A DNA stretch of 64,000 nt from Psammoneis japonica (GCA_008632985.1 QPGO01000184.1:1-64000), one strand, 5' to 3'. Shown: positions 4,407-36,964, counted from the first letter of the stretch. Notes: a model not told the origin generated them from the sequence alone. Translations and numbers: made by a program.

Positions 4407-4984
4407 TCTCTGAATCTTTGGCACATGACATCTTGTCTGTCAGCGCGACAATGTGTTTTGTGTGTTGGCTTCACGACAAGGTGCTGTGCCCAGCAAATGC
4501 CCGTCATCAGAGTGCACGATGTTGCGACATCTGCACACATGACAAAAATGCATTGCCACACCACAAAATCTGCTTGTCTGCACATGATGGTTTTTGTCAT
4601 TTGGCTGATCATTGATCTCCTGCTGTTCTTCATGTTTGAGCACAGGCGCTTTTTGATTTTTTTGATTTTTGTGCTCAGCCTTTTTCACAACAGCTGACGA
4701 TCTTTGACAACAAGCCAAACATTGCAGTTGCACGCAATGAAATTTTCATCATGCAAAGTGCATGCCAATCATTCAATCAACAACTGTGCTCCAGCTGGCC
4801 TGTTCATCCGCATCGTCCTCTTCACTCTGTGTGTCTTGTCCGCTCTCTTGCAAGAATTTCAAATGTGCGCGCCGCTGCCATGTTGGATGTTTCCTCATCA
4901 CCATTCCAAAAAAGCCACACTGCACTTCTTGCATTTGGGCGAACATCATCAAGAGGAGGAGGTCCCTCGAAGTGCAGAATCTTG

Positions 4985-5614
4985 TCACTGCTCCCCTCTT
5001 GACATTGTGTTGTCTGCTTCTTTTTCTCTTTCTTCATTTTTCCCGCCCCACTTTTCTCTTCCTTCTTCATCTTGGCGCCGCCTGTTTTCACCGTCTCCGG
5101 CGTCTTTCCACCCGAATCCTTCTTTTTCATCGACCCAGTTGCCGTTGCCTTCATCATGCGTCACTTTGTTTTGGACCCATGTTTCTGACTTCTCTCTGTG
5201 CTGCCCCCATTTCCGAATGTTTCTTTGTGGTTGTTCGCATGCGTCACTTGAAGGCACCCACATGTTCTTCACGCACCTTGCTGCGCATGTAGAAACCCAT
5301 GTTGTTTTCCAGTGCATGCACCCTTTCTCCTGATGCTGTTCTGCGCAATGTTTTCTTCCATCAATTCTGCACTCCGCACTGCCCTTTCCCGGCGCAATCT
5401 CACTTGGGATTTCTCTGGGAGAAGTTGCACACGCGTCTGGCAGGTTTTTGTGCACAAAACTCCAAATCCTGCCAGGTGTGCATGCAACTTCTCCCACGCA
5501 CCACTCTGGCATGTTTCCACAGAAGCCAGAATTTTGTGGCTGACGCGCGACCAATCTGGTGAATGCAACGGCGGACCCACGACCACAACAATCAGAGCAT
5601 TGGAAGAGGGCCAT
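4985..5614 (-). pseudogene. Transposon accessory ORF (ORF4), unknown function
   Basis: Same frame is open in copy 2 (35865-36533) with a charged C-terminus. No recognisable domain. Confidence 0.4.
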
Positions 5615-6600
5615 GTCAGATGAACTCTGTCCATCCGCTGCTGAGGATTTCTGTTGCCGGATGATGGAGACAGTTGATGGTTTTGTTCACGCTGACGCTG
5701 CTTGTTGTTTGGAGGAACAGAGAGCAAAGGATGCAAAGGCTGCTGTGTCAAGATCGGCAGAAGCAATGGCAGAAGCCCGTTGTGCCGTTGTGGCTGCAAC
5801 GACCGCACTTGACAGTGCTTTGTTAAATCAAGCAACAACCACTTGCGAATTTGAGCACATCCATGAACAGCTCATTGAGTCATTGATCGAGACACACCAT
5901 TCAGACAACGACTGCATTGTTGCAGTGGAAAATTGCAGCGAAGCGGAAATGAGTTTCCAGCGCTTTCTTCACGGCGACAATCTCCGTTGCGGGACATCAA
6001 AAATCAGAATTGAGGCTGCACATGCTGCACATGCTGCACAGCTGTGACTCGACATTGCTTCTGAGAAGCCTCAGGGCAAATTCTGACACAGACGCCAACA
6101 GAGTGGTGGAGAGGGAGCAATCTGCGATTGACAGCATCAACAAATCCATCCACCGCCGTGCCGTGCCACTCCTTCGAAGGCGACATCTGACACAGCCGCT
6201 GTGCGTCCTGAAGGATGCAATCACGTTGCTTCACGTGGCCCTCGACGATTTGAGAAGGAAAAACGTTGCCTTGCAGCGACAGTGGCAAGCTTTGCATGAT
6301 CTGTGGCCAGGCACAGATCAAATGCGGGGAGGGACATGGACCGCGATCCGGGCCATGGACGAAGAAGCCGTGGCAAGAGAAAGGGTCCTGCAGTTGGCAT
6401 TGCAAATCGAGGCACAATTGGTGGCTGTCAACCAGCCTGACCACAGCGCCGACTTTCAGCAGGCAATTGTGGCTGCCAGGGAACATTTCATGGCGCAGGA
6501 TGACTGAGTGGACCATGCAAGTGGACACTGCATGGAATCTGTGAGGAAGCAATTGCTCTGAAACTGCACACACTGTGAGTGAATGACAGATTGACACACG
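5613..6600 (+). pseudogene. Transposon accessory ORF (ORF3) convergent with the transposase, frameshifted
   Basis: MSDELCPS... then LLLRSLRANSD... Copy 2 (34721-35866) retains a GKPSDQExxxLGVSE segment also seen in the ORF at 22812-23675. Confidence 0.5.
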
Positions 6601-6604
6601 TGTC

Positions 6605-9600
6605 CTGTTTTAGAAACAAATCTGACCAACACTTCCTTCTGTCCTGTGTGGCCCAAACAAGCGGGGCCTTTTCTTGTGCTTCTGCTGCTCCTGGACATTC
6701 TTCACAAACCAAAACATTGTCCCCAATTGCTTTGACAGGGACAACACGTGACTCAGGTGAGTGCTGAGTCTTCTCAGGCATTGAAAGCCAGTTGTTTTGT
6801 TTGTGATCAAGCTGCCAGCGACTGACCAAGTCTGCATGCTGACACGGTTGCCTCACAGTTCTCTGGTCAGCTTGACAAGCAGTTGGATGGACAACTGCAA
6901 AAATCGATCCTGTGTCTTCCTGTTCAAAGAAACACAGCAAACGGGAGGGAAACTGTTGATCGCCCTTTCGTGTGCCAAAGGTCACACAGGCAAAGTCATG
7001 CCATGGTCCTTCGCTTTTGCAATCGGGGTGCACATGGTGCGTGTCCCTCCTGCTTGCATTGCAAAACTCTGTCTTGCAAGTCAGGTGTGCATTTTCACTG
7101 TCTTCACCAACACAATCCTCCCACTTTTCCGACTTGAAGTTCAGCGACACAGGACGAACTTGGCAACGAGCATGCTCGCTGCTCCACTCAAACGTCACAG
7201 TGTCAATCCCTTGGTTGCAGGTGAGAGTGAGTGCACTTCCTCCCAGCATGTGATTGTCCGTCCTGACTCTTGATGATTCCTTTTTCCCAGTTGGCAAAAT
7301 CCAACTGTTGGCTGAAATTGTGGCGTTGAGCCTCATTTGGTCCTCCATGCGTGACATGACCTGCTTCAGAAAACTGTTGAGGTTGCGTTGTTGTGCGGCA
7401 GATGACGACAGCTTGAAAAAGTCTTTCAAGAGACATTCCCCCAAGCCTGCATCAAAGTTCATTGCATGTCGGCAATGACAAAGAAACGCTGGGAGATGGA
7501 GTGTTTCATGAAGCTTTTGAAGCTTCCACCCGCATCCTTCTGTTTGCGGGACGAATTGCACTGTCCGGTCAATGAGGAGACGGACTTTCTTGTTTGTTTT
7601 CTGAACAGATGAGCTGGGAGTTGCGCTTGTGATGGGTGGATCGCCTGGCCTGCGCCATGCGTGGAAGACAAGAAGGTCCTCGAGCAATTGAATGAATTGC
7701 CGGACGCTGCAGCTGAGTCTTTTTCCCTTGTGTTTTTTCTTTTTTTGGTTGTCGTCACCATCCTCAGCCTCACTCTCCTCTTTCTCATCCTCATTTTCGT
7801 CCCAGTCACCCTCTTTGGACTCCTCCAACCTTTCATCGTCAGAGTCGTCCATGTGCTCACTGGGTTGGCAGTGACTCTCAAAGTTTGCTTTGGGAATCTT
7901 GCAATTCTCTGGAACAACGGGTTCGTCTGCATCCTCGTCAAGGAAGCATGACTCACATGCGTTTCGTCCCTCGCTGGCCAACAGCAGAAGGCAGAAAACA
8001 AAAGCCATTCCAGCCCAGTGGTGAGAGTTGAGGAAGGTGAGCGACGTTGCTCCTCCTTTGAAGTTGGTTCGCAAAAAGGATGCTTTGCAAGTTGACTGGT
8101 GATTGCTGAAAATCCTTTCCACCATGCTGTCCACCTCACTTGCGACCACAGGTGTCATGCTGTCTACAAATGAATTGATTGCCCTTTTCAAGGTGCCATT
8201 TTCAAAGAGATGCATCATGTCGCTTGCTGTTGCAAGGGCAACACCGCATGGTTGTGCACCAAAGTTTGCCTCAAAAAGACAGTTGGCAGGTGCGTTGTGT
8301 TGCTTGAGGCAATGCAAGATGCCCAGCCAGTGCTTCCTTTCTTGGCCTGATCTGTTGTTGTCGTTGGCCTTGGTTTGCACTTGGCGGAGATCCAGTCCTT
8401 GGATGAACTCGCATTCAATCCATGGGTCGTCCAGTTTGTTGAAGCCAGTTGGGCAAAAACGACAGCAACGTTGACAACAGTTGTGACCTCTGCATCGTCC
8501 AACGAGACAGTCGCTGCTTTTTGCGTCTCCTGTGATGAGAACGATCAGTGGGATCATGCGGAGGTGTTGCATCTCATCCCCTCGTTGCGTGCATGTTTTC
8601 ATGCCTCCTTTTCTCATGACTTCCAAAAGTGGCTCCAAAATGACACGCAAGCAAGTGTGGCAGTCTCTCAACGAGCGTCCCTTCTCCGCCTTGCGACTGT
8701 TTGAGAGATTCTTTGCCACAGATGACGACATCTTTTCCAAATCCAGGAGACAACCAATTGGTTTCCAGACACTCTTGTCTGACCATTTGTTGAAGGCAAC
8801 ATGCACAGAGGTCATGATCGCTGGTTCTCCACAACATGATCCCATCCCTTGTGTCCTGCCAGTCTTGTCAAGGTGGATGACATTGCACCCGAGAAATTGT
8901 TTCTCTGGGTCAGTTGTCCGTTCTTTGCAACTGCGCCTGCACCACTCACCCGCCAAAAGGCACTTGTCATCCGGTCCCTTTGCTTTGCACTTCCCAAAAG
9001 GATTGTCTGGATCGGCCACATTCTCTCTGCTGCACCACAGGTGAGGATCGAGCAAAAACTGTTCCCAGACCTTTGTGAAATCCCATCTTGGCACTGACAC
9101 TCGTTTTGGCAAACCGGTTTTGAAATTTTTGGTTTCTAGAGTGACAGGAACAGACTCGCTGGGTGGAAGAGGGAAATGCTTGGTTAAGGTGTGCATCAAC
9201 TGTTTTCTCCTTGGCAGAACTGCACCAAGCTCAATGTTGCTGTTGCCAGTGTGCCTCTCAATGAAATCAACAATGCAGTCGCACAATTCCAGGGGAGCAC
9301 CACGTGTGTCCATGAGCTTCTTGCACAACTCTGCGCAAGCTCCGTCAAGATTTGTCAAAGAGGGAGCAGAAGCCAAGGCCTCTTCTGCAGGAGCATCACA
9401 CCTGATCCCCAAACGTTGATCCTCATCGTTGATGTCCTCTTCCTCCTCCATTGTCATGTCCAACGCTGCAGCAAAGGATTGACCACCGCCAACATCCAAA
9501 TCGTTCATTGCCAAAAGTTCAACTCCTTGCATGCTGTGGTTTGATGAAATGGAGGACATGTCGTCCATTCCGTGCGGTGCGTCATCCGGGGAGGGGAACA

Positions 9601-9829
9601 AGGGGCTGCTGCTCGGATCACTTGTTGAAGATCTTGGGAATCTGCTGCGAGTTGATCGCCTTGGATGGGATTCATCATCATCAGAGGACGAAGAGGAAGA
9701 GCTGCAGCTTTCTTTGGGTGGCCCCTCTGTTGTGGCAGGAATGTTGCTTTGATCTGGGATTGGATCTTGGGTTTGCAACTCTTGGGCAACTGAGCAACAC
9801 GTCGGTGAGTGTCTCCAATGGCAGGCCAT
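6605..9829 (-). pseudogene. Plavaka/CACTA-like DDE transposase, hypermutated (no Tyr in 1113 codons)
   Basis: Motifs xLDKTG, ITGDAKxxDCLVGR, CxxC, SDMMHLFENG, WKLQKLHE and HPxxKSEGPWxD. Ancestral TAG stop inferred at 6605-6607 (CAG here, TGG in copy 2). Start uncertain. Family assigned from motif recall, not a search. Confidence 0.75.
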
Positions 9830-10262
9830 TCACAAAAAACTTTGGCCACAACCGGGACAGAGAAGAGGGTTTCCGTCCATTGCAAATCAGACAATGTTGA
9901 CAGGGCCTTCCTCAAGACTCACACTCGTCGTCCTTGTGAAGGGAAAAAAAGAACAACACGCAAAAAATGGCGGGAAATTGGCAAACATTGCATTGTCTTC
10001 CAGATTGGGATGATTCTCACAGGTGTGACGTGTCTGCATTTTGATTTTTTGTCTGGCATCCACAGCGAACATTGCACTTTTTATTTGCTGTCAAAATGCA
10101 GGATGTCATCTCCGTTGAAACACAATGACAGCCACATCAAAAAGCAAGTTGGGCTGTTTGTTGTCACACACAAATGTGTTTTCAAATTTCAGTGTTGCTG
10201 ACAATGATTTGTGCAATGCCACAGAGAAAAACAGAGTGCCTGGCTGTCTCAACATGACCCAA

Positions 10263-11705
10263 ATGATGGTTGCACTGTCGAACAGTGCCACTCCTCTCAT
10301 TGTTGCCATGAAAAGATCAAGATGCCGTCTCCAGCCGGCAAAGAAGAGAAAGAAAAATGAGGCCATTGAGCCAATGAGCCCGAGACTTCAGGCAGTGTTG
10401 AAGAGAACAGGTGCACAGGCAGCGCATGGTGCACTGAAATCAGAAGCAGAGAAGGTGGCCAGAAATGATCTCTTTCCACAGGTGAAGTTTCTCAGTCCGT
10501 CAGAATTGGCAAGCAATGGGAGCGCCTCAATGTTTGTGAAGAAACAGATTGCTGGTGGCAACGTGGACACTTCAAATTGGTCAGGAACTTGGGAGGAATG
10601 GGCAAAAAAGAGCGTCTCAATGTTTGTGAAGAAACAGATTGCTGGTGGCAACATGGACACTTCAAATTGGTCAGGAACTTGGGAGAAATGGGCAAAAAAG
10701 GCAGAAAAAAGGCAAATTGACAATCACAGAAACACGGTGTGTTTGGCCATTGGGGCAGAGGCAATGGCCCGCAAGTCAAGTGACCAATGTGTGTGATTCG
10801 AGAGTTGCGTGCATCTCACAAGAAGATGACGGCAATGCTTTGTTTGCACAGGCGTTGTCACTGAGGAAGAGGGAAAGGAAAAAGAAAAGAAACTCAAGGC
10901 AGCAGACAGGAGGAAAAAGAGGAAAAAGTCAAGCCATGACAAGAATGAAGAGAATGACATCCCGTTTGTGCCGACATGGGATCTGTTTGGCCCAGACACC
11001 ATCACCAGCGGCAAACGAAGGAACAAGCAGGCGCGCAAGTGGTTCTGTGATCACATCCTGCCTCAAACCAAGCAAAAGCAGGCATGGAGTGGCGCCATCA
11101 AAGCTGGGAACGCACAGGTCTCACAGTTGTTTGCGGTCGGTGACGAAGCTTTGGCACTGTCAGCCATGGAGAATTGTTGGCAGGTGTGGGCATGCAGGAA
11201 CAAGGAGGAGGCAGTGGAAAAATTGGGTGAGGAAATGGAGCCCGAAGAAACAAGGCCTGCCCCTTGGCACATGAAGCCAAAGAAACAACAAGTGTCTTGG
11301 GGAGACAGCAGAATCAATTGGTCCAACGATTTGTGCAAAGAGGTGATGAAAGACAGAGACTCCAAGGAGGGCAAGGAGTTTGAAAAGTGGTGTGCGGAGA
11401 TCAAGAAAAGCGAGTGCGAGAAGTCCGGAGAAGCAAAAAAGAAGAAAAAGAAAGCACCGACCGGTGATGCGGACAAGGTGAAGGCAATGGACAGCCTGAT
11501 GGTGGAGAGCAGCAGGGACGACAATGCTGACAATGATGAGCAGGAGGAAGGTGCAAAAGGCAAAACGGACGAAGGAGGAGACGAGTCCGATGGAGACGAG
11601 TCCGATGATGATCATCAGCTCAGTTCAAGAGAGTTGCAGCAAGAAAATGTGTGCACAGCCAACATGGCACTCGGCAATTGCACTGCAGATGTGACAAGGG
11701 ATTGA
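10263..11705 (+). pseudogene. Transposon accessory ORF2, divergent from the transposase; two exons (intron 10771-10851)
   Basis: Removing 10771-10851 (GCAAGT...CACAG) joins the two ORF-track frames. Contains a VGDEALALSAMENxW motif and an acidic tail. Homologues at 30278-31640 and 15870-16690. Confidence 0.6.
10521..10700 (+). repeat. 90-bp in-frame tandem duplication in ORF2
   Basis: 10521-10610 is nearly identical to 10611-10700. Single copy in the second element. Confidence 0.9.
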
Positions 11706-12002
11706 CTTGACCGATGAAATGCTTTTCTCATTTAAAATGATGTTTGCAAAAATTGACAAACCAAGGATTGTGTGGAAATGCAATCGCACACTGGCACATG
11801 GCAACAAGGTGGAGGCAGAAGCAACGATGTGGACACAGTGAAAAATGGCATGCACAATTCTCAGCAAGTTGTTGCAACATTGGTGCAGCAAACTTGCAAC
11901 CAGAGGTTGGCCTTTCATTGCACAACAACAATGTTTTGCAATGTTTTGACAAATTGTCATCATGCAAATCTGCACATTTTTGACATTTTGTGCACTCTGA
12001 TG

Positions 12003-12555
12003 ATCAAAGTGCTGCGGCGGTGTCTCAATCTCAAGACAAAATTGGCTGGAGACAGACCCCCAATGGGCGCTTCTCATCTTTGTGGAACAAAGCTCAGCCA
12101 TCATGCTTGCTGTCAGCTAGATTGTGCTGCTCCTTGTCGAACATGGAAAAGCGCTCAGATTGGGTCGCTGCGATTGGCAGTTTTGTGTGGCCCCAGTGGC
12201 GGGAGCTCTCCATGATGGCGCTGCACATGGGCACAATTTGGGCACAAGAAAGTCCTCACAGCACCGTGACACCGAGGCAGAAGCACAAGCCATCCACTCC
12301 AAGGCAGACAGCTGTTCAGCTTGCAATCAATCCGAGTTGCTCAGTTCAGTGGAGGAGCATCTCACTTGTTCGACCCGCAGGTTGCGCAGCTGGTTGGCCA
12401 TGGCTCAACCAGTGTTCAAGCCAAGCATCCGCAAAGCCTGGCATCTGGCAGCAAGGGGCGTTGGCGCCATTGCAAGTTGTTTTGGCACAACATCGCCTTA
12501 GGGTGATGCCGGTTGAGGACATGCAAAACCAACAATTTGACCGCAATGTAAAAAG
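12003..12555 (+). mobile_element. 3' end of a non-LTR retrotransposon (LINE); upstream part at 4407-4504
   Basis: SQDKIGWRQxxNGRFSxxW...WxQWxEL and ...LRSWL...GVGAIASCF* resemble diatom LINE C-termini. Short A-rich tail at ~12549-12555. Confidence 0.6.
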
Positions 12556-13879
12556 TTGACTCCGCCATGATGTTCCATTTGAGAGGGCAGTCTGGAGATG
12601 GCCTGGCGCACTTTTTGTGCAGAAGCTGCACGAGAGCCAAGCACATGCATTCCTGCACAGACGCAGCACAAAAACAGAAAGCGCGGCACGCCCATCAGCG
12701 ACTCACGACAACACCACGTGACAACCATGCATCTAAATGGCGTCACCCGCATCTTTCTGTGGCTCCTCTTTTGCTTGCCCGATTGCCCCAAAAGGGCCAG
12801 GGAAAGCTCGCGCACTTCTGTCATGATGGATCAATGCAAGCTGAAGTTGTTTTTTTCACTCCACAACATCAGAATGCAGCGCAACAGATTGTCAAGGCAC
12901 ACCTGCATGTTGGCTGTGCTGTCAGCCAAATCAACGCCATTTGCCGTTCGCTCACTTGACGAGTTGCAAAGCCAACGACTCTTGTTGGCTGAAACTCTTG
13001 AGCCACTTTTGAGACTTGACACAATGACCCATTTGTCCCGTTCTTCACCCTCTGTGTTTCATCAGAGGCAGCAATGCAGCGTTGTTCACTTTCCTTTGTA
13101 AATTTCGGAACATTGAATTGCACAAAAGTGCATTGTTGTTGTTCAGCTTCAACTTAAATTTCAAGAGTCAAGTTGAATTTGTTGTTTCCTTTTTGTGTGC
13201 GCAATTGTCGCCTTTTTGTTTGGATTTAAATTCGCCGAAGACTTTCAACATGCACTTCATTGTCAAAAAACAAGTTTTGTTTTGACGAATTTGTCGCACA
13301 CTCATGGAAACGTCAACTTTGACAGCGCTCTTCATTGGCTCCACCACAGTCTTGCGTGGCCCTGACAAAGAGAAAAGGGGTGGGAGGACTTGCCGTGCCT
13401 GCCAACGTCAAGACTGCAAAGGACGTGGAGGCAGACATTTGTGTGAGCACCAGATGCATCCACAGTTGGGAAATCAACACTGCGCTGCTGTCGTGCCATT
13501 CAGCCAGACCAGTGATCACCAGCAAGAGCGACCTCAAACTTGCCTTCTGTCAACACAAAAAGCAAATGTGCCCTCATGACAGGTGCACTCATTTCCATCT
13601 CTTGCTGCCATTTCGACTTTCGACCGGCATCCCGAGGGTGACACCACGGCCCGACGGCGTCAATGCAGCCACTCCCCTTTCCCAAGGTCCGTTGACGGCA
13701 TTGTCGCATTGCAGCCAGTGAAGTCGATTTCACATTCCCAACATCCGTCGATGGCATCACCATGGCCCAGCTCCTTGCCAACCATGATGCCAACAGCAGC
13801 AAAAACACAGAAGCAGTTTTTGTCCATTTTTGGACTTTCTCACCTCTGTTTTCTTGGACACACAACATCAGAGTAAAAT

Positions 13880-15870
13880 GTGGAATTGACTTGCATTGGC
13901 GTTGTTTGCAAGAGAAGGTTTGGCGGCAATGGTCAAGCATCAGCTGCTTCTGTGCCATCATGGTGGTTTTTTGTGATGGTTTTCTGCGCTGCGTTGTCTC
14001 CCCTCGAATGGGTGCCAGCTTCAGTGGGATCAATTTGACCTTGTGTGTCCGCATTGCCGGCCCTTTCCAGGCCAATTCAAAAAAAACTGTGTCTCAGGAC
14101 GGAAAATCCTGGTTCATCTGCAAGATGAGCCAATCAGTGGCGCCGCAACTGCACTGGGCTTGGGCATTTTGCCCACCACTGGAATCATGCTCACCACAAA
14201 ATGTGACGAATTGACTCCTGGAGCCTCGGTCCAGGCATCAACTTGGTGAGAACGCCAGCAAGATTTGTTTTGCCATCCTCCCAAGCAATGCGCACAATGC
14301 CAGCAGCCTGCGCCTCATGCATCCGGTGACAAGCAATGGCACTGTGCTTCTTTTTGAGTGTTGACTCGGGCTGCGTCGAGTTCTTAAACATGGCCTCATT
14401 GTCACAGAAGACATCAGTGGAGCCATCGAGGGGAACACCCATCATGTGAAGCTTGTGTCAAAAGGCATCGATCTGCTCCATGGCAATCTTCATTGCAACA
14501 AATTCCGACCCAAAAGTTGAGGATTCCACGGTGTTTTGCCGCTTGGAGCACCACAAGATTGGGGCCCATTGCATGAACACAATGATCCCTGAATGGGATC
14601 GGCGCATCACTCGACAACCAGCATGATCCGCGTCGACAAAACATGCAGTGGTGACACTGTTCCCCCTGGCCTCAGGGGCATCATGAGGGATGGCTTTGGC
14701 TGCCCCAGGATGGCATTCCGGCCAGTCACATTCCTGACAACGTGGATGATTGAAGGTCGGTTCCATGTCATCGAACACCATCGCTGACCTGGCGTGTGCC
14801 TTCAAACAGGCAAAGATGTGAAACACCTCATCCAGGTGCCCAACCCTTGGCGCCACCAAGCAAGAAGACAGAAGAGAGACTGGCGCTGTGGCATCAATGC
14901 ACCCCAGTTCCACCATCCAATGCAAAACGCCAATGAGCCCCTGGAAACAAAACTCAATGGGATTGTGACTCTCTTCTTGAGTCCCCGGCCTGCTCGGCCG
15001 AGTTCAAACTCAACATTGGCAGTGGCCCGCTTGACATGCAAGTCAGATGAAAGGGCCCAACGTGTTTTGCCATCCAAGTCAGACAGTGGGAACTTCTTTG
15101 CTTCGGCACCCAGGTGCTCTTCCGGTTCCTTGACGCTTCCCTCTTTTAGCACATGTCTCAAAGCCATGCAATCCATGAACTTCTGGGGTTCGTGCGAGAC
15201 AACTGGCAGGTCGTCCACATGTGCAAGTGCGCATTCCAGTGTTTGAAGCCACCTGGCTTGGCATTCTTGCGCATCCACACATCGGGGCTGCCCTTGCCAG
15301 AGTTGAAACCCGCGAGCCTTGGTGCTGCTGCCACATGTTCCCTAAAAGCAGCACTGGAACTCTTCAGTCCGCACAGGGCCCTGACAATTTCAGTGGGTCA
15401 ACCAACATTCTGCTTGCCAAATTCCAGGCCAGCAATCATGTGACAGCACTCTTTCGTTGGTGCACTCAGACAAGCGTTCTGAGTGTTGGCACACATGACT
15501 TCCAAGTCATTCAGAGCTGCCATCATAAGAGCTGTTCTCACGCCATTGCATGAAACCACACTGGAGTGAGTCGATTCCTTCGGCGGATCAGCCATGTGGC
15601 CTCCGGCCATGCATCGTGCTTTCCCAGTCAAGTCTGACTTGACATCAAACACCAAGTGGCACTTAATTTCCTTGTGTCACATCTGGTCATCATCGACAAA
15701 TTCAAAGGCTGGCATTGCATTGCGCATCTCCTTCTCAGCTGCATTTCCCCACAGGTCAAGCCCAGACTGCTCGTCCAGTGTCAAGGCCTGCTCCACGGAT
15801 TTCGGCAATTCGACACCGAATTTGTGAGTGCGCTTCCAGTGCCTGGTCTTGACTTTCATGACCATCCTTC
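13880..15870 (-). mobile_element. Ty1/Copia (CoDi-like) RT-RNase H fragment with PPT and possible short 3' LTR, hypermutated
   Basis: KRTHKFGVELPKSV, VFDVKSDLxxKARxxAGGH, THSSVVS, NACL, LCGLKSS, HVDD (YVDD), FVDADHAG, WCSKRQNTVESSTFGSEF and KKKHSAIACHR. PPT GAGGGGAGA at ~13997-14005 on the minus strand. Confidence 0.9.
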
Positions 15871-16690
15871 CATGATCCCGCCCACTCGCGCTTGCCGAAC
15901 TCGCCATTTGCTGTGTTTTTGCGCATCAGCCGTGACACCTTGCCACCACTCGCCATGTCCGCCTTCACGAGGAATTTCGCCTTTGGGAACAGCTCTCTCC
16001 GTGCCACCTCTTCCACCTCTCTCTTCAGTGACTTGTGATCTGCCGCAGCCCCCATCCGCTGCAATGCCGCCGCAAGCCTCGGGCTGTGGGGCACTCCCTC
16101 TGCCCCTGCAGCATCCGTCTTAGACGCATTCCAGCCCCAGGTGGGAGCTCGCAGCACTGACGTGTGACAACAACAATTTTTGTCATCCGTCGTGTGTTTC
16201 GCACGTAGATTTCCACGTGTGACATTTAAAAAAAATTGTCCAGACTTGCTGTTTTGCGAAGCCCCAGACGTTTTATGTGACAAATTTATAGAAACAACAA
16301 TGTGCCAGTTACATTCTTCAATGTCTGAAGAATGTAACTGGCCAAGTAAAAAATGATGTGCTTCAATCATGTGCGAGTTTGTGCGTTCGCAAAATTGCCT
16401 CATTTTCTGTTGGCGATCATTGGCATTTTAATTGCCGTGTGATTTTGCTGCGGAGCTCGCACGTAGAAGTCTGCGGGCCCAATGTCACACGGATTCCCAC
16501 CTGCGTCTGGAACGCGTCCTTGGCCGCTTTCTTCCTCCTTCCCATCGTCCTCGACTCATTGTGTCGCTGTCAGTTCCTCCTGTCTGCAATCGTGCAGTGC
16601 AACAGCTCTTCCAAGGAAAATTGTCTTTGCAAAATTTCAAACCTGTTCCTGACACTTTATGGTGATGCTGCTTCCCCCTCCTCATGTGTT
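15870..16690 (-). pseudogene. ORF2 homologue of the family-2 element, split by a MITE and truncated at the Copia junction
   Basis: SPRLAAALQRMG...VARRELFPKAKFL...MASGG aligns with SPRLQAVLKRTG...VARNDLFPQVKFL...LASNG of ORF2. Confidence 0.65.
16123..16518. mobile_element. MITE family A, copy 2 (396 bp, only partly TA-depleted)
   Basis: TIRs as in copy 1; TSD CTTA/CTTG. Excision restores RKKAAK-TDAAG in frame. Confidence 0.85.
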
Positions 16691-26650: not shown

Positions 26651-28249
26651 GCATAGTTTTGGATTGATGCTCTCGTTTGTCATCATCATCCATGCAGTCG
26701 GCCCTCTGATCACGCATTCTGCATCGAAGGATTGTGAGCAACTTGCTGTGCTTGGGTCGTTTGCCAGGTTGTTCCTTGGGACTGCGCTTCCCAAATTCGT
26801 GGTTCAACATGGAATTTGTTTTTTCTTGTGCGCCTCCCGACGGGCAAGGGAATCACCAGCCATTGTCACTTTGTTCTTTGTGTTGCCGATTTGGTCCGGA
26901 GCAAGGCATTCCTTGGTGTCATCCGCCTGAGAGCCCGGGTCGTTAGAATCGCACAGCACAAGAAAGCTGTTGATGAACAGGCGCCACTCCTTTAGCGATT
27001 GGACATGACAAAAAATCTGCATGAACCAGCAGTCAAAGTCATTTTGTTTGCACTGAACGTGACGCGTTGCGATTTCGGTGACAAAAAATGCACCGTGGAG
27101 GTCTTGTGCACGGTCGTCGATCAGTTTTTTGAGATTGTCTTCCTTTAGAAACCGGAAACAAGGCTTGCCGGAAACGGGTCATTCAGGTCGTCACCGGCAA
27201 CAATTGCACAGACAAATTCTGCCATGGCTTTGATGTTGCGGTGAAGATTCATGCGGTGCTCTTCTTGTTGAACTGTCTCTCCAGGCATTTTGGAGAAACA
27301 GAGAGCTTCATCCAAATTTTGATGATGAAGGCAGCATTGACCTTTCAGTGTGGGATTTCTTCAGGGGCCAACCACGAGTCTTGATGCAAGACCAAACATC
27401 AGGGCATCCAAGAGTTTTCCTGACAACATTGTTGGTGCGGATGACTTCTGCGACAGGTGGAATTGACGTAACTTTGGCTTGTGGCAAAGGAAGGGAAGAG
27501 CGAGAAATTGCGGAGAGGGAGTCCATTTCGTTGTTTCCAAAAACTGCTTTTTGGATGCACGCGTTGAAATCATGCTTTTGAGCTTGGGACCAAAAAACTC
27601 CATTCCAAAACCATTGGCAAAATGTTCTGCATCATCAAAATCATGTTCATCAGGAAATTGGAAGGAAGGATTGGGGTCGACCTTGTCGTGAGACGGGGTG
27701 AAGTCGTTGACCGCCATGGCAAGAGGTCAGTTGTGATTCGCGTAGAAAGCACGTGGATGACAACAGCACATGCTCAGGTGGAAAGCAGTTTGGGGAGAGG
27801 ATGTGCTGTTGTGAATTGCGTGGACAATTGCACATGTAGAATGAGCACCCGAAGCAGGGCAGCACAGAAATTCCGGGAGGTGCTGGAAAAATGATGCTGG
27901 AAATGACTGGAGCGCACCGAACAGCAGAGGATGCACCAGTCAACACGGTGGGGTGTGCATGATGTGGAGATGTTAAAAACCAAAATCAAAGACATCGGTT
28001 CAATGCAAATGTGATGTTAAGATCAAATGGAAATTTGTGAAATCCAACAAAAGCGAAAATCGAATTAAATTGTTGAGAATGATCAAACACAAATGGATGA
28101 CAAATGTCGGCATAAAATGGATTTAATGAGTTCAGTGTGTTGTTTCAATTTAAATGTGAAAACAACAATTGAAGGTGCAACAAAATCAACCACAATTGGT
28201 GACATTTGTGTGCAGAAAATTGAAAACCACTGTGTTGCCGCCTCTGATG

Positions 28250-28705
28250 TTGACATGTGCATGGCTCACAAGACACAACAAACAGAGTCATGGGTGGGCA
28301 AATTGATGCACAGCACACAACAAGGGCATGGTGAACATTGTCGCAGAAGCATTCAGCCAACTTGCTGTGAAGAAAATTGAGCCTTTTGAAATCCTGCAAC
28401 AATGTCCTGCCTTTAAAACAAGACAATGACATTTCCTCCAAATTGTCAGATGCAACACATCTTGCCAACACTTTTCGTGGGAGGCAAGCAAGATCAAAAA
28501 GTGCTCATGTCACAAGGACAAAATTGTCTTGTCTGAAGACGCTTTGAAAAAATTGGTGACAGATTGGCGCACAATGCGTGCCCACTTCACACTGGAAAAA
28601 AGACAGTCTCGCAACACCTGCGCAGTTGCAGTGCACAAAATGTGCAAGGCAAGACACAAACAAACAACGTCACTCTCAAAAGACATTTGGAAATTGGAGC
28701 GGCCC
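28250..28705 (+). repeat. Dispersed repeat, direct copy of 40519-40970
   Basis: TTGACA...CACAAGACACAACAAACAGAGTCATGGG through GGAAATTGGAGCGGCCCTG is shared. Confidence 0.85.
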
Positions 28706-29309
28706 TGTGTGGCCCACACAAAACAACAACAGTCATTGCCAGCGGCACAATGCAGTCAACGTGGAGACAACATTGATGCTGTCAATGTCCGTTGAACAAC
28801 TCAACTTGACAAATGACTCCAATGTTCAATCTCACATTTTCCACTTTTTGCAGATGTTTGAAAGGTTCCTTTGCACTGAGCGATGTTTTGACATGTCCCA
28901 GAGAAACAGATTGATGTTGAGTTCAGGATGCCTTGCAAAGTGCAAGGTGTTTTTGCCAAAAATGAGCACAGTGCATTGTGCACACACACCACAGAAGGTG
29001 AAATGGTGCTGAACTTGTTGGCGCCATTGGGTTTTGTCATTCCGTGCACAACATGCGCGATCACAGCCACAACTTGCGGCAGCAACTGTGTTCTTCCCAG
29101 GGCCAGCTGGTGACAAATTGACTGTCGCAGCAGAGTTTGCATCCACTGCTGTGAAAGCTGTTGTTGGCAAGCAAGCTGTGGCTCAAGAAGGCCTTGAGGA
29201 ATGGAGCAAAGGTGCAGAACACACGGTCAATTTGGGCTTGCCTTGAGAGAATGTTGCAGCTGGCAACAAAATGCAGCATCTCACATTCAGCCAGCAAGCC
29301 AGTCATTCA

Positions 29310-29590
29310 GTTGGTGGGTTGGCTGGTCGGTTGGTTGGCTGATCGGCTGGTTGGCTGGTCGGCTGGTCGGTTGGTTGGTTGGTTGGTTGGTTGGTTGGTT
29401 GGTTGGTTGGTTGGTTGGTTGGTTGGTTGGTTGGTTGTTGGTTGGTTGTTGGTTGGTTGGTTGGTTGTTGGTTTTGGTTGGTTGGTTGGTTGGTTGGTTG
29501 GTTGGTTGGTTGGTTGGTTGGTTGGTTGGTTGGTTGGTTGGTTGGTTGGTTGGTTGGTTGGTTGGTTGGTTGGTTGGTCAGTTGGTTGGC
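29310..29590. repeat. (GGTT)n microsatellite grading into the 8-mer satellite
   Basis: Direct inspection. Confidence 0.95.
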
Positions 29591-29981
29591 GATGAAGGGT
29601 TGGCCACTTTGAGCACTTCTGAGGCTCAAAAAAGGGTCAGGGGATGCGCTCCAGCTCTGGGCAGGACCTTGCACTGCTGAAACATGACATCAACATTTTT
29701 TTGGATTGTGCTGTGTGTTGTGCATGTGCATTTCTATGTGACTTTGGTGGAATTGTGCACCACTTTGCAGTGCAATTGCTGGGTGATCCATTCAACAGGT
29801 TTTGACATTTTTTTCTTCTGCGTCATTTGCAAATGCATTGAGAATGGTGCAGGGCAGGCGGATTGCCAAGAACTTTGAGTGTGGACAGGCACAAATGCAC
29901 TTGAAGATGAAAATGTCCATCAATGAAATTCTTGCACTGCAGAGCTCGCACGCAGAATTCTGCGGGCCGAGTGTCACAAAA

Positions 29982-32900
29982 CATCAGAGTGCACAAAATG
30001 TTAAAAATGTGCAGATTCACATGATGACAATTTGTCAAAATGTTGCAAAAAATTGTTGTTGCACGATGAAAGGCCAACCTCTGGTTGCAAGTTTGGTGTG
30101 CCAACATTGCAATGACTCGTTGAGAATCATGCACGCTGTTTTTCACCACATCCACATCACTGTTTCTGCCTCCACCTTGTTGCCACATGCCAATGCGGAT
30201 TGCATTGCCACACAATCCTTGGTTTGTTAATTTTCGTAAACTTTGTTTTGCACAAGAAAAGCATTTCATCGGTTGGGTCAATCCCTTGTTGCGTCTGCAG
30301 TGCAATGACCGAGTGCCATGTTGACTGTGCACACATTTTCTTGCTGCAACTCTCTTGAGCTGAGCTGACAATCATCATCGGACTCGTCTCCATCGGACTC
30401 GTCTCCTCTGTTGTTTTTGCCTTTTGCGCCTTCCTCCTGCTCATCGTCGTCACTGTCATCATCCCTGCTGCTCTCCACCATCAGGCTGTTCATTGCCTTC
30501 ACCTTCTCCGCATCACCGGTCGGTGCTTTCTTCTTCTTCTTTTTGCTTCTCCGGACTTCTTGTGCTTGCTTTTCTTGATCTCCGCGTGCCACTTTTCAAA
30601 CTCCTTGCCCTCCTTGGAGTCTCTGTCTTTTGTCACCTCTTTGTGCAAATGTTGAACCGATTGATTCCGTTGTCTCCCCAAGACACTCTTTGTTTCTTTG
30701 GCTTCGTGTGCCAAGGGGCAGGCCTTGTTTCTTCGGGCTCCATTTCCTCACCCAATTCTTCCGCCGCCTCCTCCTTGTTCCTGCATGCCCACACCTGCCA
30801 ATGATTTTCCACAGCTGACAGTGCCAAAGCTTTGTCACCGACTGCAAACAACTGTGAGACCTGTGCGTTCCCAGTTTTGACGGTGCTGCTCCATGCCTGC
30901 TTTTGCTTGGTTCAAGGCAGCATGTGATCACAGAACCACTTGCGCACCTGCTTGTTCCTTCGTTTGCCGCCGGCGACAGTGTCCAGGCCAACTGATCCCA
31001 TGTCGGCACAAACGGGATGTCATTCTCTTCATTCTTGTCATGGCTTGACTTTTTCCTGCCTTGCTTTTTCTTCCTGACTGCCGCCTTGAGTTTCTTTTCT
31101 TTTTCCTTTCCCTCTTCCTTGGCGACAACGCCCACAAGACAAAGCATCACCGTCATCTTCTTGTGAGATGCGCGCAACTCTCAAACCACACACATTGGTC
31201 ACTCAACTCATGGGCCATTGCCTCCGCCCCAACAGCCGAACACACTGTGTTTCTGCGATTGTCAGCTTGCCTTTTTGCCGCCTTTTTTGGCCATTCCTCC
31301 CAAGTTCCTGACCAATTTGAAGTGTCCATGTTGCCACCAGCAATCTGTTTCTTGACAAACATTGAGATGCTCCCATTGCTTGCCAATTCTGATGGACTGA
31401 GAAACTTCACCTGTGGAAACAGATCATTTCTAGCCACCTTCTCTGCTTCTGATTTTTCAATGCACCATGCGCTGCCTGCGCACCTGTTCTCTTCAACGCT
31501 GCCTGAAGTCTTGGGCTCATTGGCTCAACAGTCTCATTTTTCTTTCTCTTCTTTGCCGGCTGTGCTGGAGACAACATCTTTGTCTTTTTGCGGCAACAAT
31601 GAGAGGAGTGGTGCTGTTCGACAGTGCAACCGTTGTTTGGGTCGTGTTGAGACAGCCAGGCACTCTGTTTTTCTCCACAACATTGCACAAATCATTGTCA
31701 GCAACACACACATTTGAAAACACATTTGCGCACAACAACAAATGGCCCAACTTGCTTTTTGATGTGGCTGTCATTGCATTTCAACGGAGATGGTGTCCTG
31801 CATTTTGACAGCAAATAAAAGTGCAACATTCATTGTGAGCGCAGATAAAAAATCAAAATGCAGACACGTCATGCCTGCAAGAATCATCCAAATCTGCAAG
31901 ACAATGCAATGTTTGCCAATTTCCTGCCATTTTTTGTGTGCTTCTGCTCCCTCTTTGACAAATGTTGATAGAGCTTGCGCAGAGTTGTGCAAGAAGCTCA
32001 TGGACACATGTGGTGCTCCCTGGAATTGTGCGATTGCATTGTTGATTTCATTGAGAGGCACACTGGCAACAGCAACATTGAGCTTGGTGCAGTTCTGCCA
32101 AGGAGAAAAGAGTTGATGCATGCCTTAACTGAGCATTTCCCTCTCCCACCCAGTGAGTCATTCCTGTCACTCTAGAAACCAAAAATTTCAAAACCGGTTT
32201 GCCAAAACGAGTGTCAGTGCCAAGATGGAATTTCACAAAGGTTTGGGAGCAGTTTTTGCTCAATCCTCACCTGTGGTGCAGCAGAGAGAATGTGGCCAAT
32301 CCAGACAATCCTTTTGGGAAGCACAAAGCAAAGGGACCAGATGACAAGTGCCTTTTGGCGGGTGAGTGGCACAGGCGCAGTTGCAAAGAATGGATGACTG
32401 ACCCAGAGAAACAATTTCTCGAGTGCAATGTCATTTGCCTCGACAAGACTGGCAGGACACAAGGGATGGGATCATGTTGTGGAGAACCAGTGATCATGAC
32501 CTCTGCGCATGTTGCCTTCAACAAATGGTCGGACAAGAGTGTCTGGAAGCCAATTGGTCATCTCCCAGATTTGGAAAAGATGCCATCATCTGCGGCAAAG
32601 AATCTCTCAAACAATCGCAAGGCGGAGAAGGGACGCTCGTGAGAGACTGCCACACTTGCTTGCGTGTCATTTTGGAGCCACTTTTGGAAGTCATGAGAAA
32701 AGGAGGCATGAAAACATGCGTGCGACGAGGGGATGAGATGCGACACCTCCACGTGATCCCGCTGATTGTTCTGATCACAGGAGATGCAAAAAGCGGTGAC
32801 TGTCTTGTAGGACGATGCGGAGGTCACAACTGTTGTCAACGTTGCTGTTGTTTTTGCCTCGCTGGCTTCAACAAACTGGACGACCCATGGATTGAATGCG

Positions 32901-35900
32901 AGTTTGTCCGAGGACTGGATCTCCACCAAGTGCAAACCAAGGCCAACGACGACAACAGATCAGGCCAAGAAAGGAAGCACTGGCTGGGCATCTTGCATTG
33001 CCTCAAGCAACACAACGCACCTGCCAACTGTCTTTTTGAGGCAGACTTTGGCGCACAACCATGCGGCGTTGCCCTTGCAACAGCAAGCGACATGATGCAT
33101 CTCTTTGAAAACGGCACCTTGAAAAGGGCAATCAATTCATTTGTAGACAGCATGACACCTGTGGTCGCAAGTGAGGTGGACAGCACAGTGGAAAGGATTT
33201 TCAGCAATCACCGGTCAACTTGCAAAGCATCCTTTTTGCAAACAAACTTCAAAGGAGGAGCAATGTCGCTTGCCTTCCTCAACTCTCACCACTGGGCTGG
33301 AATGGCTTTTGTTTTCTACCTTCTCCTGTTGACCAGCGAGGGACGAAACGCATGTGAGTCATGCTTCCTTGATGAGGACGCAGACGAACCCATTGTTCCA
33401 GAGAATCGCAAGACACCCAAAGTGAACTTTGAGAGTTGCTGCCAACCCAGTGAGTGCTTGGACTCTGACAATGAAAGGTCGGAGGAGTCCAAAGAGGGTG
33501 ACTGGGACAAAAATGAGGACAAGAAAGAAGAGAGCGAGGCTGAGGATGGTGACGACAACCAAAAAAAGAAAAAATGCAAGGGAAAAAGACTTGGCTGCAG
33601 CGTCCGGCAATTCATTCAATTGCTTGAGGACCTTCTTGTCTTCCACGCATGGCACAGGCCAGGCGATCCACCCATCACAAGCGCAACTCCCAGTTCATCT
33701 GTTCAGAAAACAAACAAGAAAATCCGTCTCCTCATTGACTGGACAGTGCAATTCATCCCGCAAACAGAAGGATGCAGGTGGAAGCTTCAAAAGCTTCATG
33801 AAACACTCCATCTCCCAGCGTTTCTTTGTCATTGCTGACATGTGATGAACTCTGATGCAGGCTTGGGGGAATGTCTCTTGAAAGACTTTTTCAAGCTGTC
33901 ATCATCCACGGCACAACAACGCAACCTTGACAGTTTTCTGAAGCAGGTCGTGTTGCGCATGGAGGGCCAAATGAGGCTCAATGCCGCAATTTCAGCCAAC
34001 AGTTGGATTTTGCCAACTGGGAAAAAAGAATCATCAAGAGTCAGGATGGACAATCACACGCTGGGAGGAAGCACGTTCACTCTCACCTGCAACCAAGGGA
34101 TCGGCACTGTGACGTTTGAGTGGAACAGCTTGCATGCTCGTTGCCAAGTTCACCCTGTGTTGCCAAACTTCATGTCGGAAAAGTGGGAGGATTGTGTTGG
34201 TGAAGACAGCGAAAGTGCACACCTCACTTGTAAGACAGAGTTTTGCAATGCAAACGGGAGGGATGCGTGCCGTGCGCACCCCAACTGCAAAAGCGAAGGA
34301 CCATGGCATGACTTTGCCCATGTGACCTTTGGCGCACGAAAGGGCGATCAACAGTTTCCCTCCCGTTTGCTGTGTTTCTTTGAACAGGAAGACACAGGAT
34401 TGATTTTTGCAGTGGTCCATCCAACTGCTTGTCAAGTTGACCAGAGAACTGTGAGGCAACAGCATCAGTGTGCAGACTTGGTCAGTCGCTGGCAGCTTGA
34501 TCACAAACGAAACAACTGGCTTTCAATGCCTGAGAAGACTCAGCACTCACCTGAGTTACGTGTTGTCCCTGTTGAAGCAATTGGGGACAATGTTTTGGTT
34601 TATGAAGAATGTCCAGGAGCAGCAGAAGCTCAAGAAAAGGCCCCATTTGTTTGGGCTGCACAGGACAGAAGGAAGTGTTGGTCAGATTTGTTTCTAAAAT
34701 GGGGTGCGCACGTCAATCTGTCATTCACTCACAGTGATTTCCCAACTCTTTCTTGCAAACATGATGAGTTTGATCCTTTCAGAATTGGCAAAGTCATTGT
34801 GGCACATGTGAGGCAGTGCGGTGCGAGCACCTTCCGTTGCTTTTGTTCTGATGTCTTCTTCTGAAACTCCAAGACAAGCTTCTTCCTGATCGGAAGGCTT
34901 TCCCAACCACCGACATGACAGGAAACTCTGATGCATCAGATGTGTGCAGTTTTGGACCAATTGCTTCCTCATGGATTCTGTGCAGTGTCCACTTGCACGG
35001 TCCATTTAGTCATCCTGCGCCATGAAATGTTCCCTGGCAGTCGGCACTGTGGTCAGGCTGGTTGACAGCCACCAATTGTGCCTCGATTTGCAATGCCAAC
35101 TGCAGGACCCTTTCTCTTGCCATGGCTTCTTCGTCCACAGCCCGGATTGCGGTCCACATCCCTCCCCGCATTTGATCTGTGCCTGGCCTCAGATCATGCA
35201 AAGCTTGCCACTGTTGCTGCCAGGCAACGTCTTTCCTCATCAAATTGTCGAGGGCCTCGTGGAGCAACGTGATTGCATCCTTCAGGATGCACTGCGGCTG
35301 TGTTAGATGTCACCTTCGAAGGAGTGGCATGGCATGGCGGTGGATGGATTTGTCAATGCTGTTAATTCTGTGTCAGAATTTGCCCTGAGGCTTCTCAGAA
35401 GCAACATTGAGTCACAGCTGTGCAGCGTGTGTGGCCCACATTCTGATTTTTGATGTCCCACAACAAAGATTGGGAGCCCCAGTTCTTTTGCGTCAAATGC
35501 ATTGCCGTGAAGAAAGCGTTGGAAACTCATTTCTGCTTTGCTGCAATTTTCCACTGCAACAACACAGTTGTTGTCTGAACAGTGTGTCTCGATCGATGAC
35601 TCAATGCACTGCACATGGATGTGCTTAAACTCGCAAGTGGTTGTTGCTTGATTTGACAAAGCACTCTCAAGTGTGGTCGTTGCAGCCACACCGGCACGAC
35701 GGGCTTCTGCCATTGCTTCCACCAATCTTGACACAGCAGCCTTTGCATCCTTTGCTCTCTGTTCCTCCAAACAACAAGCAGCATCAGCGTGAACAAAACC
35801 ATCAACTGTCTCCATCATCCGGCGACAGAAATCCTCATCAGCGGATGGACAGAGTTCATCTGACATGGTTTTCTTCCAATGCTCTGATTGTTGTGGTCAT

Positions 35901-36936
35901 GGGTCCGCCATTGCATTCACCAGATTGGTCGTGCGTCAGTCACAAAATTCTGGTTTCCACAGAAACACACCAGAGTGGTGCGCGGGAGAAGTTGCACACG
36001 CGCCTGGTGGGATTTGGAGTTTCAAACACAAAAACCTGCCAGACGCGTGTGCAACTTCTCCCAGGGAAATCCTGTGTGAGATTGCACTGGGAAAGGGCAA
36101 TGCGGAGTGCAGAATTGATGGAAGAAAACATTGTGCAAACATGCATCAGGAGAAAGGGTGCATGCACTGGAAAACAACATGGGTTTCTACATGCGCGTTA
36201 AGGCACGTGAAGAACACGTGGGTGCCTTCAAGTGACGCACGCGAACAACCACAAAGAAACATTTGGAAATGGAGATGGCACAGAGAGAAGTCAGAAACAT
36301 GGATCCAAAACAAAGTGACACACAATGAAGGCGACGGCAACGGGATCGATGAAAAAGAAGGATTCAGATGGAAAGACGCCGGAGACGGTGAAAACAGGCG
36401 GCGCCAAGATGAAGAAGGAAGAGAAAAATGGGACGGGCAAAATGAAGAAAGAGAAAAAGAAGCAGATGACACGATGTCAAGAGGGGAGCAGCGATGCAAT
36501 TCTGCATTTCAAGGGACCTCTTCCTCTCGATGATGTTCACCCAAATGCAAGAAATGCAGTGTGTTTTTTTGGAACGGTGATGAGGAAACATCCAATGCGG
36601 CAGCGGCACATTTGAAATTCTTGCAAGAGAGCGGACAAGACATGTGGAATGAAGAGGATGATGCGGACGAGTGGGCCAATTGGAGCACAGTCATTGACCA
36701 AATGATTGGTGCACACTTCACATGATGAAAATTTCATTGCATGCAATTGCAACATTTGGCTTGTCATTAAAGATCGTCAGTTGTTGAGAAAAAGACAGAG
36801 CATAAAAATTAAAAAGCATCTGTGTTCAAACATGAAGAATGGCAGGAGATTGACAATGTGCAGATGAGTGAATTTTACAACATGGCAACACAATTTTGTC
36901 ATGCACGCAGATGTCACGATGTCGTGCACTCTGATG
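29982..36936 (+). mobile_element. CACTA/Plavaka-like DNA transposon, family 1 copy 2 (7.0 kb, inverted relative to copy 1)
   Basis: TIRs CATCAGAGTGCAC / GTGCACTCTGATG. 2-bp TSD AA supported by the uninterrupted MITE end at 38048-38084. About 0.6 kb of the transposase 5' region is deleted at ~31940. Confidence 0.9.
31940..34702 (+). pseudogene. Plavaka/CACTA-like transposase (copy 2), 5'-deleted and frameshifted
   Basis: ORF-track frames 31975, 32199, 32423 and 33842 align to the copy-1 protein. Confidence 0.8.
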
Positions 36937-36964
36937 AACATCCCACCCAGGACTGGAACCCATC

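Follow-up and report, generated by a model that had tools for sequence, protein, structure and literature searches.

The window analysed here, a 64,000-nucleotide stretch of Psammoneis japonica DNA (GCA_008632985.1, QPGO01000184.1:1-64000), holds two insertions of one Plavaka-like DNA transposon, copy 1 and copy 2, and each of them was very probably hit independently, and nearly to completion, by a DNA mutator that turns TpA into TpG or CpA, with CpG decay running alongside and both processes confined to the repeat domain in which the copies lie. At 120 dinucleotide positions one copy reads TG where its partner reads CA (58 and 62 in the two directions), against 9.7 expected if transitions were independent. 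TpA itself has fallen to an observed/expected ratio (o/e) of 0.02 in copy 1 and 0.05 in copy 2. TG and CA both reach about 1.6, and the GC content is 0.48-0.49. The 1113-codon open frame of copy 1, a transposase relic designated P0001, has no Tyr codon, while each of its seven homologues has 22-38 Tyr. An earlier note on this DNA had proposed that the copies mutated separately, after insertion and close to saturation, from a TA-rich ancestor. The TG/CA differences, the near saturation and the separate mutation of the copies that it described were all recovered, and every peptide pair that it quoted is present in the translations, at codons 281, 297, 319, 360, 700, 948, 726, 613 and 1042 of the 1113-codon open reading frame (ORF), as is the AWCK of a third relic, family 2 (ORF 21150-21863). 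Pattern, direction, context bias, independence of the copies and restriction to the domain can all be read from the comparisons of sequence set out below.

Two insertions of a Plavaka-like transposon

Alignment of positions 4300-12300 with the reverse complement of 29700-37200 using MAFFT gave 90.9% identity between the copies (6029 of 6630 ungapped columns within the element). The limits of both copies proposed earlier proved exact, as a perfect 13-bp terminal inverted repeat (TIR; CATCAGAGTGCAC) stands at all four ends and marks the precise limits of homology, beyond which the flanking DNA is unrelated (Table 1). Because homology ends at the TIRs and the flanks are unrelated, the copies represent two separate insertions of a TIR-bounded DNA transposon and not a segmental duplication. 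In a repeat search, the inverted arms 4659-12002 and 29982-36815 (arms I1-I4, I7-I14, I18, I19, I22 and I23) were collinear and 83-95% complementary. Copy 2 is without about 600 bp of copy 1 (9373-9973) and has about 200 bp extra near 34734-34934. The copies differ by 601 mismatches, 537 of them transitions; the TA/TG/CA/CG system holds 432 of the 601, and the residual divergence is 2.55%. Copy 1 also contains a 90-bp tandem duplication (10520-10700, 97% identical), opposite which the alignment of copy 2 is gapped; of the three differences between its units, two set CG against TG/CA and none sets TG against CA.

The element is, as far as homology indicates, Plavaka-like, an assignment that does not come from its own Pfam score. 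P0001 has seven homologues with identities of 30-39% and E values from 3e-149 to 1e-92, and PF18759 (Plavaka) is found in three of the seven. The closest of them (P0002; E = 3e-149) passes the PF18759 cutoff with 28.4 bits against 26.3, whereas P0001 matched no Pfam family at E <= 0.1 and a fragment of copy 2 reached only 14.7 bits against the same cutoff. The accessory ORFs of the element and the neighbouring repeat ORFs gave no Pfam family above threshold, and a search of the full library with the transposase returned 1100 representatives at E <= 0.001. The element resembles the Plavaka (PF18759)/CACTA-like DDE transposons in having TIRs and a single long transposase, with a homologue that passes Pfam, but differs from them in that the present copies fall below the Pfam threshold and that its ends, CATCAGAGTGCAC, begin CATCAG and not CACTA. 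A target-site duplication is likewise not clear, the flanks being CGT/ATC and GTT/TTT where 3 bp would be expected for CACTA; loss of TpA may have changed both the termini and the target-site duplication.

The 1113-codon frame of P0001 is open because TAA and TAG have been erased and not because it is functional. On both strands of copy 1 there are 8 TAA, 5 TAG and 346 TGA, against 173, 180 and 348 in 9.7 kb of normal DNA. The 58 ORFs of at least 80 codons that overlap copy 1 have the same origin, since both vanished stop codons contain TpA. Family 2 is almost free of Tyr as well (0, 0 and 2 in its three ORFs) and has Cys/His outcomes of its own at the conserved Tyr columns 301, 319 and 390, differing from those of the P0001 copies; on this comparison it stands as a third replicate with its own outcomes.

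Loss of TpA is not a trait of the transposon family, as TpA o/e is normal (0.42-0.69) in all 17 related loci from metagenome contigs, found with an alignment of seven sequences. One distant relative among them (L017; 21% identity) lies on a contig with a CpG o/e of 0.02, a TpA o/e of 0.55 and a GC content of 0.35, so that CpG loss and TpA loss are separable. Three relatives in the public protein library (P0092, P0113 and P0149), 1127-1290 residues long, contain a single Tyr each, whereas the median over 154 relatives is 2.9%. They are 24-30% identical to the copies in the window and 28-42% identical among themselves, and belong to different subfamilies; being both nearly Tyr-free and diverged, they suggest that hypermutation has struck other lineages of the family elsewhere.

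Direction of change

A pairwise table cannot set the direction of change, because the paths TA > TG/CA > CG and CG > TG/CA > TA are mirror images of each other, and the direction is taken here from outgroups. At nine columns Tyr is present in at least six of the seven homologues. Neither copy keeps Tyr at any of them, eight of the nine having become Cys, His or Arg, against 180 of 265 cases in which other conserved columns were kept (Fisher p = 5e-5). A wider outgroup of 55 longer proteins, from which the three Tyr-free ones named above were left out, gives nine Tyr-dominated columns at which the two copies show Cys 9 times, His 6 times, Arg 3 times and Tyr never. The earlier note had held that homologues with Arg in place of Tyr at the discordant codons would make this plain CpG decay. 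Such homologues were not found. At the 12 Cys/His-discordant codons Arg accounts for at most two of the outgroup residues in a column, and Tyr is often dominant (43 of 50 residues at codon 281, 48 of 55 at 297 and 51 of 55 at 319), with Tyr and Phe predominating at codons 360 and 931. The closest intact relative, P0009, is 59% identical over codons 508-1074 and has 18 Tyr, 16 of which stand opposite a Cys, His, Arg or Tyr of the copies; it has Tyr at the discordant codons 653, 659, 931 and 948, and also at 613 and 1042, where copy 2 retains Tyr.

Among 30 testable discordant sites that change the amino acid, the residue encoded with TA fits the seven homologues better at 18 and that encoded with CG at 11, with one tie. 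Exact matches number 53 for TA against 21 for CG, and the 55-protein set again gives 18 against 11. The check that had been suggested, a reset of discordant sites to TA scored by a profile, was run with a profile of the seven homologues and agreed: copy 1 as observed scores 845.1 bits, and setting its 36 in-ORF discordant sites to TA raises the score to 866.9, while setting them to CG lowers it to 835.8. As a control, the same number of concordant TG/CA sites was reset ten times, with mean scores of 818.9 bits for TA and 812.7 for CG. From outgroups and profile scores together, the direction of change at TpA is taken to be from A:T to G:C, giving TpG or CpA.

The TA ancestor thus holds for most discordant sites, by both outgroups and profile score, and fails for a minority that are probably CG-derived. 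The proposal that the ancestor can be reconstructed stands to the same extent, as TA can be restored at most discordant sites while the whole ancestor is not recoverable from two copies, because sites with the same outcome in both are invisible. Such identical outcomes are usual at YTAY sites on account of the context bias described below (R, purine; Y, pyrimidine).

CpG decay in the same domain

CpG decay is, by the same comparison, a real second process in the domain. CG in one copy stands against TG or CA in the other at 171 sites. At the one-sided sites that could be compared with homologues, the CG-bearing residue fits better at 29 and the other residue at 7, with one tie, and the Arg-conserved columns 415, 421, 457, 578, 587 and 932 show the decay directly. 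Under a homogeneous CpG model (123 CG/CG sites, 171 one-sided, p = 0.41), about 30 of the 120 discordant sites would come from CG, an estimate that assumes equal CpG rates and would rise with rate variation; roughly a quarter of the discordant sites are therefore probably CG-derived.

Further copies were sought in one public DNA run (X1), which contains 37% of the sampled words and is kept as contigs, in which alleles and ongoing mutation are not visible; no RNA run was listed. Of 290 variant positions, 40 are listed, at which nearly all other copies differ from copy 1. Among these 40 the majority has CG where copy 1 has CA or TG in 17; the remainder are 3 with a TA majority, 4 in the opposite direction and 16 other changes. 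Methylation of transposable elements is described in diatoms (PMC9998398). Deamination of methylated CpG in silenced transposons accounts for the 171 differences of CG against TG/CA and the CpG o/e of 0.54, but it is unable to remove TpA or to convert Tyr codons, and reaches about a quarter of the discordant sites.

Context and strand preference

Of the 166 TpAs that survive in the depleted domains, 48 (29%) lie in TTAA, against 24 of 668 (3.6%) in normal DNA, and none lies in ATAT, ATAC or GTAT. Between normal and depleted DNA, the density of RTAY drops from 14.04 to 0.04 per kb, that of YTAR only from 6.09 to 1.93. Survival alone does not separate a +1 rule from a -2 rule; the outcomes do. 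In Tyr-majority columns a preceding pyrimidine gives TG 13 times and CA once, and a preceding purine gives TG 6 times and CA 9 times (p = 0.005). Concordant sites show the same asymmetry, with 172 TG and 91 CA in Y__Y flanks and 107 TG and 166 CA in R__R flanks. By this asymmetry of outcomes, the target favoured on a single strand is 5'-T[A]Y-3' or, with equal justification, 5'-R[T]A-3' on the opposite one. The mutator thus favours 5'-TAY-3' and spares TTAA.

Independence of the copies and timing

A TpA baseline was taken from 16 of the related loci, the weakest match (L017) being left out. It amounts to 38 TpA per kb and hence to about 253 ancestral TpAs in the aligned 6.63 kb. In a rough model, fully independent loss predicts 74-104 discordant sites, depending on the outcome bias, and about 90 are seen after the CpG share is subtracted, a count that fits loss of most TpA after the two lineages had split. 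The earlier note had dated the mutation to after insertion; what the counts bear out is separate mutation of each copy after the split of the lineages, while the timing of insertion itself is not strictly shown. The 120 discordant sites are not clustered (61 runs against 60.9 expected, z = 0.01), and the same runs test gives no sign of long single-strand tracts at saturation.

In run X1, 4999 contig pieces match copy 1 at 85% identity or more, 938 of them at 99% or more and 1480 at 95-99%. The family is very abundant, and some of its copies may resemble copy 1 more than copy 2 does. Copy 2 is bracketed by a direct repeat (28247-28707 and 40517-40972; about 465 bp, about 95% identity), possibly a pair of long terminal repeats.

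Confinement to a repeat domain

Per kilobase, TpA o/e is 0.00-0.19 over 1-46 kb and 52-54 kb and 0.38-0.87 elsewhere, and CpG o/e falls in the same places. The domain edges, at about 45.88, 51.8 and 54.35 kb, are sharp to 100-200 bp. Along the window the two profiles show repeat DNA depleted while the adjoining host genes are spared. Since both processes stop sharply at the domain edge and leave genes untouched, the mutator would be aimed at repeat or silenced chromatin.

Proposed mechanism and its alternatives

We propose that a Plavaka-like transposon inserted twice, separately, in a 46-kb repeat domain of a diatom-like genome, and that after the two lineages had split a mutator working at the level of DNA would have changed TpA to TpG or CpA, by A to G on either strand with a bias to 5'-TAY-3'. 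A near-complete process of this kind would remove nearly all of the roughly 250 ancestral TpAs of each copy, erase the TAA and TAG stop codons, and turn every Tyr codon of copy 1 into Cys, His or Arg, leaving copy 2 with two Tyr. Deamination of methylated CpG to TG or CA, at about 40% per site per copy, would be the second process in the same domain. The mutator would probably act on DNA in place, because the element belongs to the DNA transposons, neither strand is hit more than the other and the damage extends to the flanks and tandem arrays, and it would constitute an irreversible, transposon-killing defence, although the targeting signal and the defensive role are themselves part of the proposal. 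The natural substrate of TadA/ADAT2-like enzymes is A34 of tRNA, the base after U33, and we tentatively suggest adenine deamination to hypoxanthine by such an enzyme as the chemistry.

Several observations weigh against this proposal. The CG ancestor fits better at 11 of the 30 testable discordant sites, two of the 36 TA resets create stop codons, and the CG-derived share would grow if CpG rates vary. Discordant sites, predicted to gather in R__Y flanks, are not significantly enriched there (28 of 89, no different from the CG classes, p = 0.26), and in view of this weak concentration TAY is a bias of perhaps 3-4 fold and no strict motif. A TA majority occurs in just 3 of the 40 listed X1 positions, which lends the proposal no support, although it would be expected if other copies were mutated too. 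The 1480 of 4999 X1 pieces that are 95-99% like copy 1 suggest that copies already mutated may have been recopied, so that some loss may have preceded insertion at these sites. The repeat pair at 28247-28707 and 40517-40972 is TA-poor in both members (1-2 TpA) with only three TG/CA-discordant sites and five one-sided CG differences, too few sites to time the loss of TA. The evidence is, moreover, wholly comparative.

Chemistry on thymine is unlikely. Thymine modified at 5'-RTA-3', for instance to 5-hydroxymethyluracil by an enzyme of the TET/JBP type, would mispair with G and give T to C. Seen from the opposite strand, this change at R[T]A is A to G at T[A]Y; all context counts therefore fit equally well, and sequence data are unable to separate the two chemistries. 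Thymine hydroxylation has been linked to a TpA context, which would agree with such a chemistry. No TET/JBP domain is encoded among the 22 ORFs and proteins of the window examined with Pfam. The one published case, in the rhizarian alga discussed below, proposes adenine deamination, also without proof.

It is quite unlikely that the copies were already TA-free when they reached these sites, as hypermutated elements of two diverged lineages that were mobilised in trans or by segmental duplication. Such a history would agree with TIRs that contain no TpA and yet are intact at all four ends, with the many X1 pieces 95-99% like copy 1 and with the TA-poor repeat pair that has few discordant sites. 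However, unrelated flanking DNA is equally TA-depleted, and the depletion tracks the edges of the domain and not those of the elements; the discordant sites are about as many as fully independent loss from a TA-normal ancestor would give; and a transposase without Tyr and with many conserved residues lost could not have maintained either lineage.

Plain CpG decay as the sole cause, in which every TG/CA-discordant site was once CG (an Arg CGY codon) and a different strand was deaminated in each copy, is highly improbable. The decay does operate here, as seen from the 29:7 residue fits, the 17 of 40 listed X1 positions and the CpG o/e of 0.54; the 11 of 30 sites that favour CG speak for it, and pairwise counts alone are symmetric between the two paths. 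Against it stand the near absence of Arg at the 12 discordant codons, where Tyr reaches 43 of 50, 48 of 55 and 51 of 55, the Tyr of P0009 at 653, 659, 931 and 948, and the profile score, which a CG reset lowers and a TA reset raises; nor can it remove TpA to an o/e of 0.02 or all Tyr, and its homogeneous form gives about 30 sites and not 120. Hyperediting of transcripts from A to I by an ADAR-like enzyme, later copied back into DNA, shares the base change and the U/T preference before the edited A (10.64898/2026.01.13.699255, in the text of the preprint), but is hardly credible for a TIR-bounded DNA transposon that has no RNA intermediate, with both strands hit equally (58:62) and unrelated flanks, tandem arrays and three different elements depleted alike.

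Comparison with known systems and implications

A TpA-directed mutator invites comparison with repeat-induced point mutation (RIP). RIP, known from Neurospora and other ascomycetes, turns CpA into TpA (C to T), and produces AT-rich DNA and stop codons. In both, dinucleotide-specific transitions riddle repeated or foreign DNA, kill transposons and spare adjoining genes, and each copy is mutated separately. Here, however, TpA is destroyed, the changes run towards G:C, and TAA and TAG vanish (13 left in copy 1 against 346 TGA). The product of RIP, enrichment in TpA and AT, is absent from both copies, which have a TpA o/e of 0.02-0.05, a GC content of 0.48-0.49 and an excess of CA and TG.

The closest parallel is in Bigelowiella natans, a rhizarian alga, in which de novo changes of TpA to TpG or CpA were seen in mutation-accumulation lines in integrated DNA of nucleocytoplasmic large DNA viruses (NCLDV) and virophages (Mettrop et al., bioRxiv 10.64898/2026.01.13.699255). 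An ADAT2-like adenine deamination is proposed by those authors, the enzyme being unproven (10.64898/2026.01.13.699255). By the text of the preprint, the two systems share changes on TpA that give TpG or CpA according to strand, A:T to G:C. In the alga, too, the changes are confined to foreign DNA while the rest of the genome is normal, their trace is a depletion of TpA with enrichment of CpA and TpG, and Pfam domains of the transposable-element type are enriched among its low-TpA coding sequences. The differences are that the process in B. natans was seen live, in viral insertions and with mild depletion (Rho TpA 0.45), whereas at the present locus it is inferred from sequence, acts on DNA transposons and a whole repeat domain, lies near saturation (0.02-0.05) and is accompanied by CpG decay. 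The preprint text, supplements aside, makes no mention of diatoms and gives no analysis of flanking context, and the TAY bias and the escape of TTAA are undescribed there. Full-text searches of the literature turned up no account of hypermutation directed at TpA in diatoms or transposons; the sole description is the B. natans preprint, whose supplements may hold context data.

A broader reading, which we regard as doubtful, is that diatoms carry a mutator dedicated to genome defence. It would be an adenine deaminase of DNA, or its equivalent, that recognises 5'-TAY-3', is guided to silenced repeat chromatin and, soon after a transposon lands, rewrites all of its TpAs beyond reversal. As a rhizarian alga bears the same footprint, such a system would be old and widespread in the supergroup of stramenopiles, alveolates and rhizarians (SAR), a mirror-image counterpart to RIP in fungi that edits adenine in DNA naturally.

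Targeted hypermutation of DNA as a defence against transposons is established for C to T (RIP, APOBEC). The single precedent for an A:T to G:C counterpart aimed at TpA is the 2026 preprint on viral insertions in one rhizarian alga, and the twin-copy locus adds the same footprint in a second, unrelated algal lineage, transposons as targets, and saturation. The twin copies amount to a natural experiment in which outgroups give the direction of change, discordant outcomes the independence of each copy, and the outcomes by strand the preference of the mutator; the pattern of TAY hit and TTAA spared offers a fingerprint against which candidate enzymes can be matched. The enzyme, if found, would be an adenine editor of DNA that occurs in nature. 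Annotation is affected as well, since long frames stay open in such regions as TAA and TAG vanish, and the regions yield Tyr-free 'proteins', of which three relatives are already in public protein sets, while libraries of transposable elements and Pfam searches miss the decayed copies.

Features of the window and neighbouring DNA

Table 1. Coordinates of the transposon copies, their parts and the domains of the window.
Feature	Position	Strand	Remarks
Copy 1, Plavaka-like DNA transposon	4505..12002	(-), transposase on minus strand	7498 bp; TpA o/e 0.02; CpG o/e 0.54
Copy 1 left TIR, CATCAGAGTGCAC	4505..4517	(+)	
Copy 1 right TIR, reverse complement of left	11990..12002	(-)	
Copy 2, same transposon, inverted relative to copy 1	29982..36936	(+)	6955 bp; TpA o/e 0.05
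Copy 2 TIR	29982..29994	(+)	
Copy 2 TIR	36924..36936	(-)	
P0001, transposase relic, 1113-codon open frame of copy 1	6491..9829	(-)	Tyr = 0
Copy 2 transposase relic, three frames (32157-32642, 32402-33838, 33839-34864)	32157..34864	(+)	N-terminal ~150 codons deleted
Family 2, third Plavaka-like transposase relic	19536..21863	(+)	59% identity with P0001 (323 aa)
Repeat domain with all three elements, depleted in TpA and reduced in CpG	1..45880		TpA o/e 0.00-0.19 per kb
Unmutated gene region with ankyrin-repeat ORF	45900..51800		TpA o/e 0.4-0.8; CpG o/e ~1
Ankyrin-repeat ORF	49433-51100	(-)	nearest Atlas clusters mostly Bacillariophyta
Second small depleted island in gene region	51800..54350		TpA o/e 0.02-0.06; CpG o/e 0.08-0.20
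Unmutated gene region with DEAD/Helicase_C fragments (56203-57363)	54350..64000		TpA o/e 0.4-0.87

The diatom-like label of the genome is provisional and comes from the nearest Atlas clusters of the ankyrin-repeat ORF; the ORF at 57950-59305 gave no usable hit in the Atlas. Within the gene region, the depleted island is probably a piece of an old transposon; one ORF in it has an (RE)n-rich stretch and gave no Pfam match above threshold. Where the unmutated region begins, an ORF on the minus strand (46526-47065) has a Lys/Ala/Pro-rich tail with KKAAPKK repeats and is histone-H1-like by eye only. Two runs of N (606-960 and 2248-2678) total 786 bases; the inverted repeat I5, which pairs 606-1029 with 2177-2600, overlaps the two runs and may be no more than their artefact. 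Tandem arrays adjoin the transposon ends: an 8-bp unit, CGGGTCGG, and its complement are repeated at 65-605, 37010-37207 and 38132-38326, and a 4-bp unit, (GTTG)n, is present in 71 copies at 29310-29589. Variants of the units of these arrays differ by CG/TG/CA.

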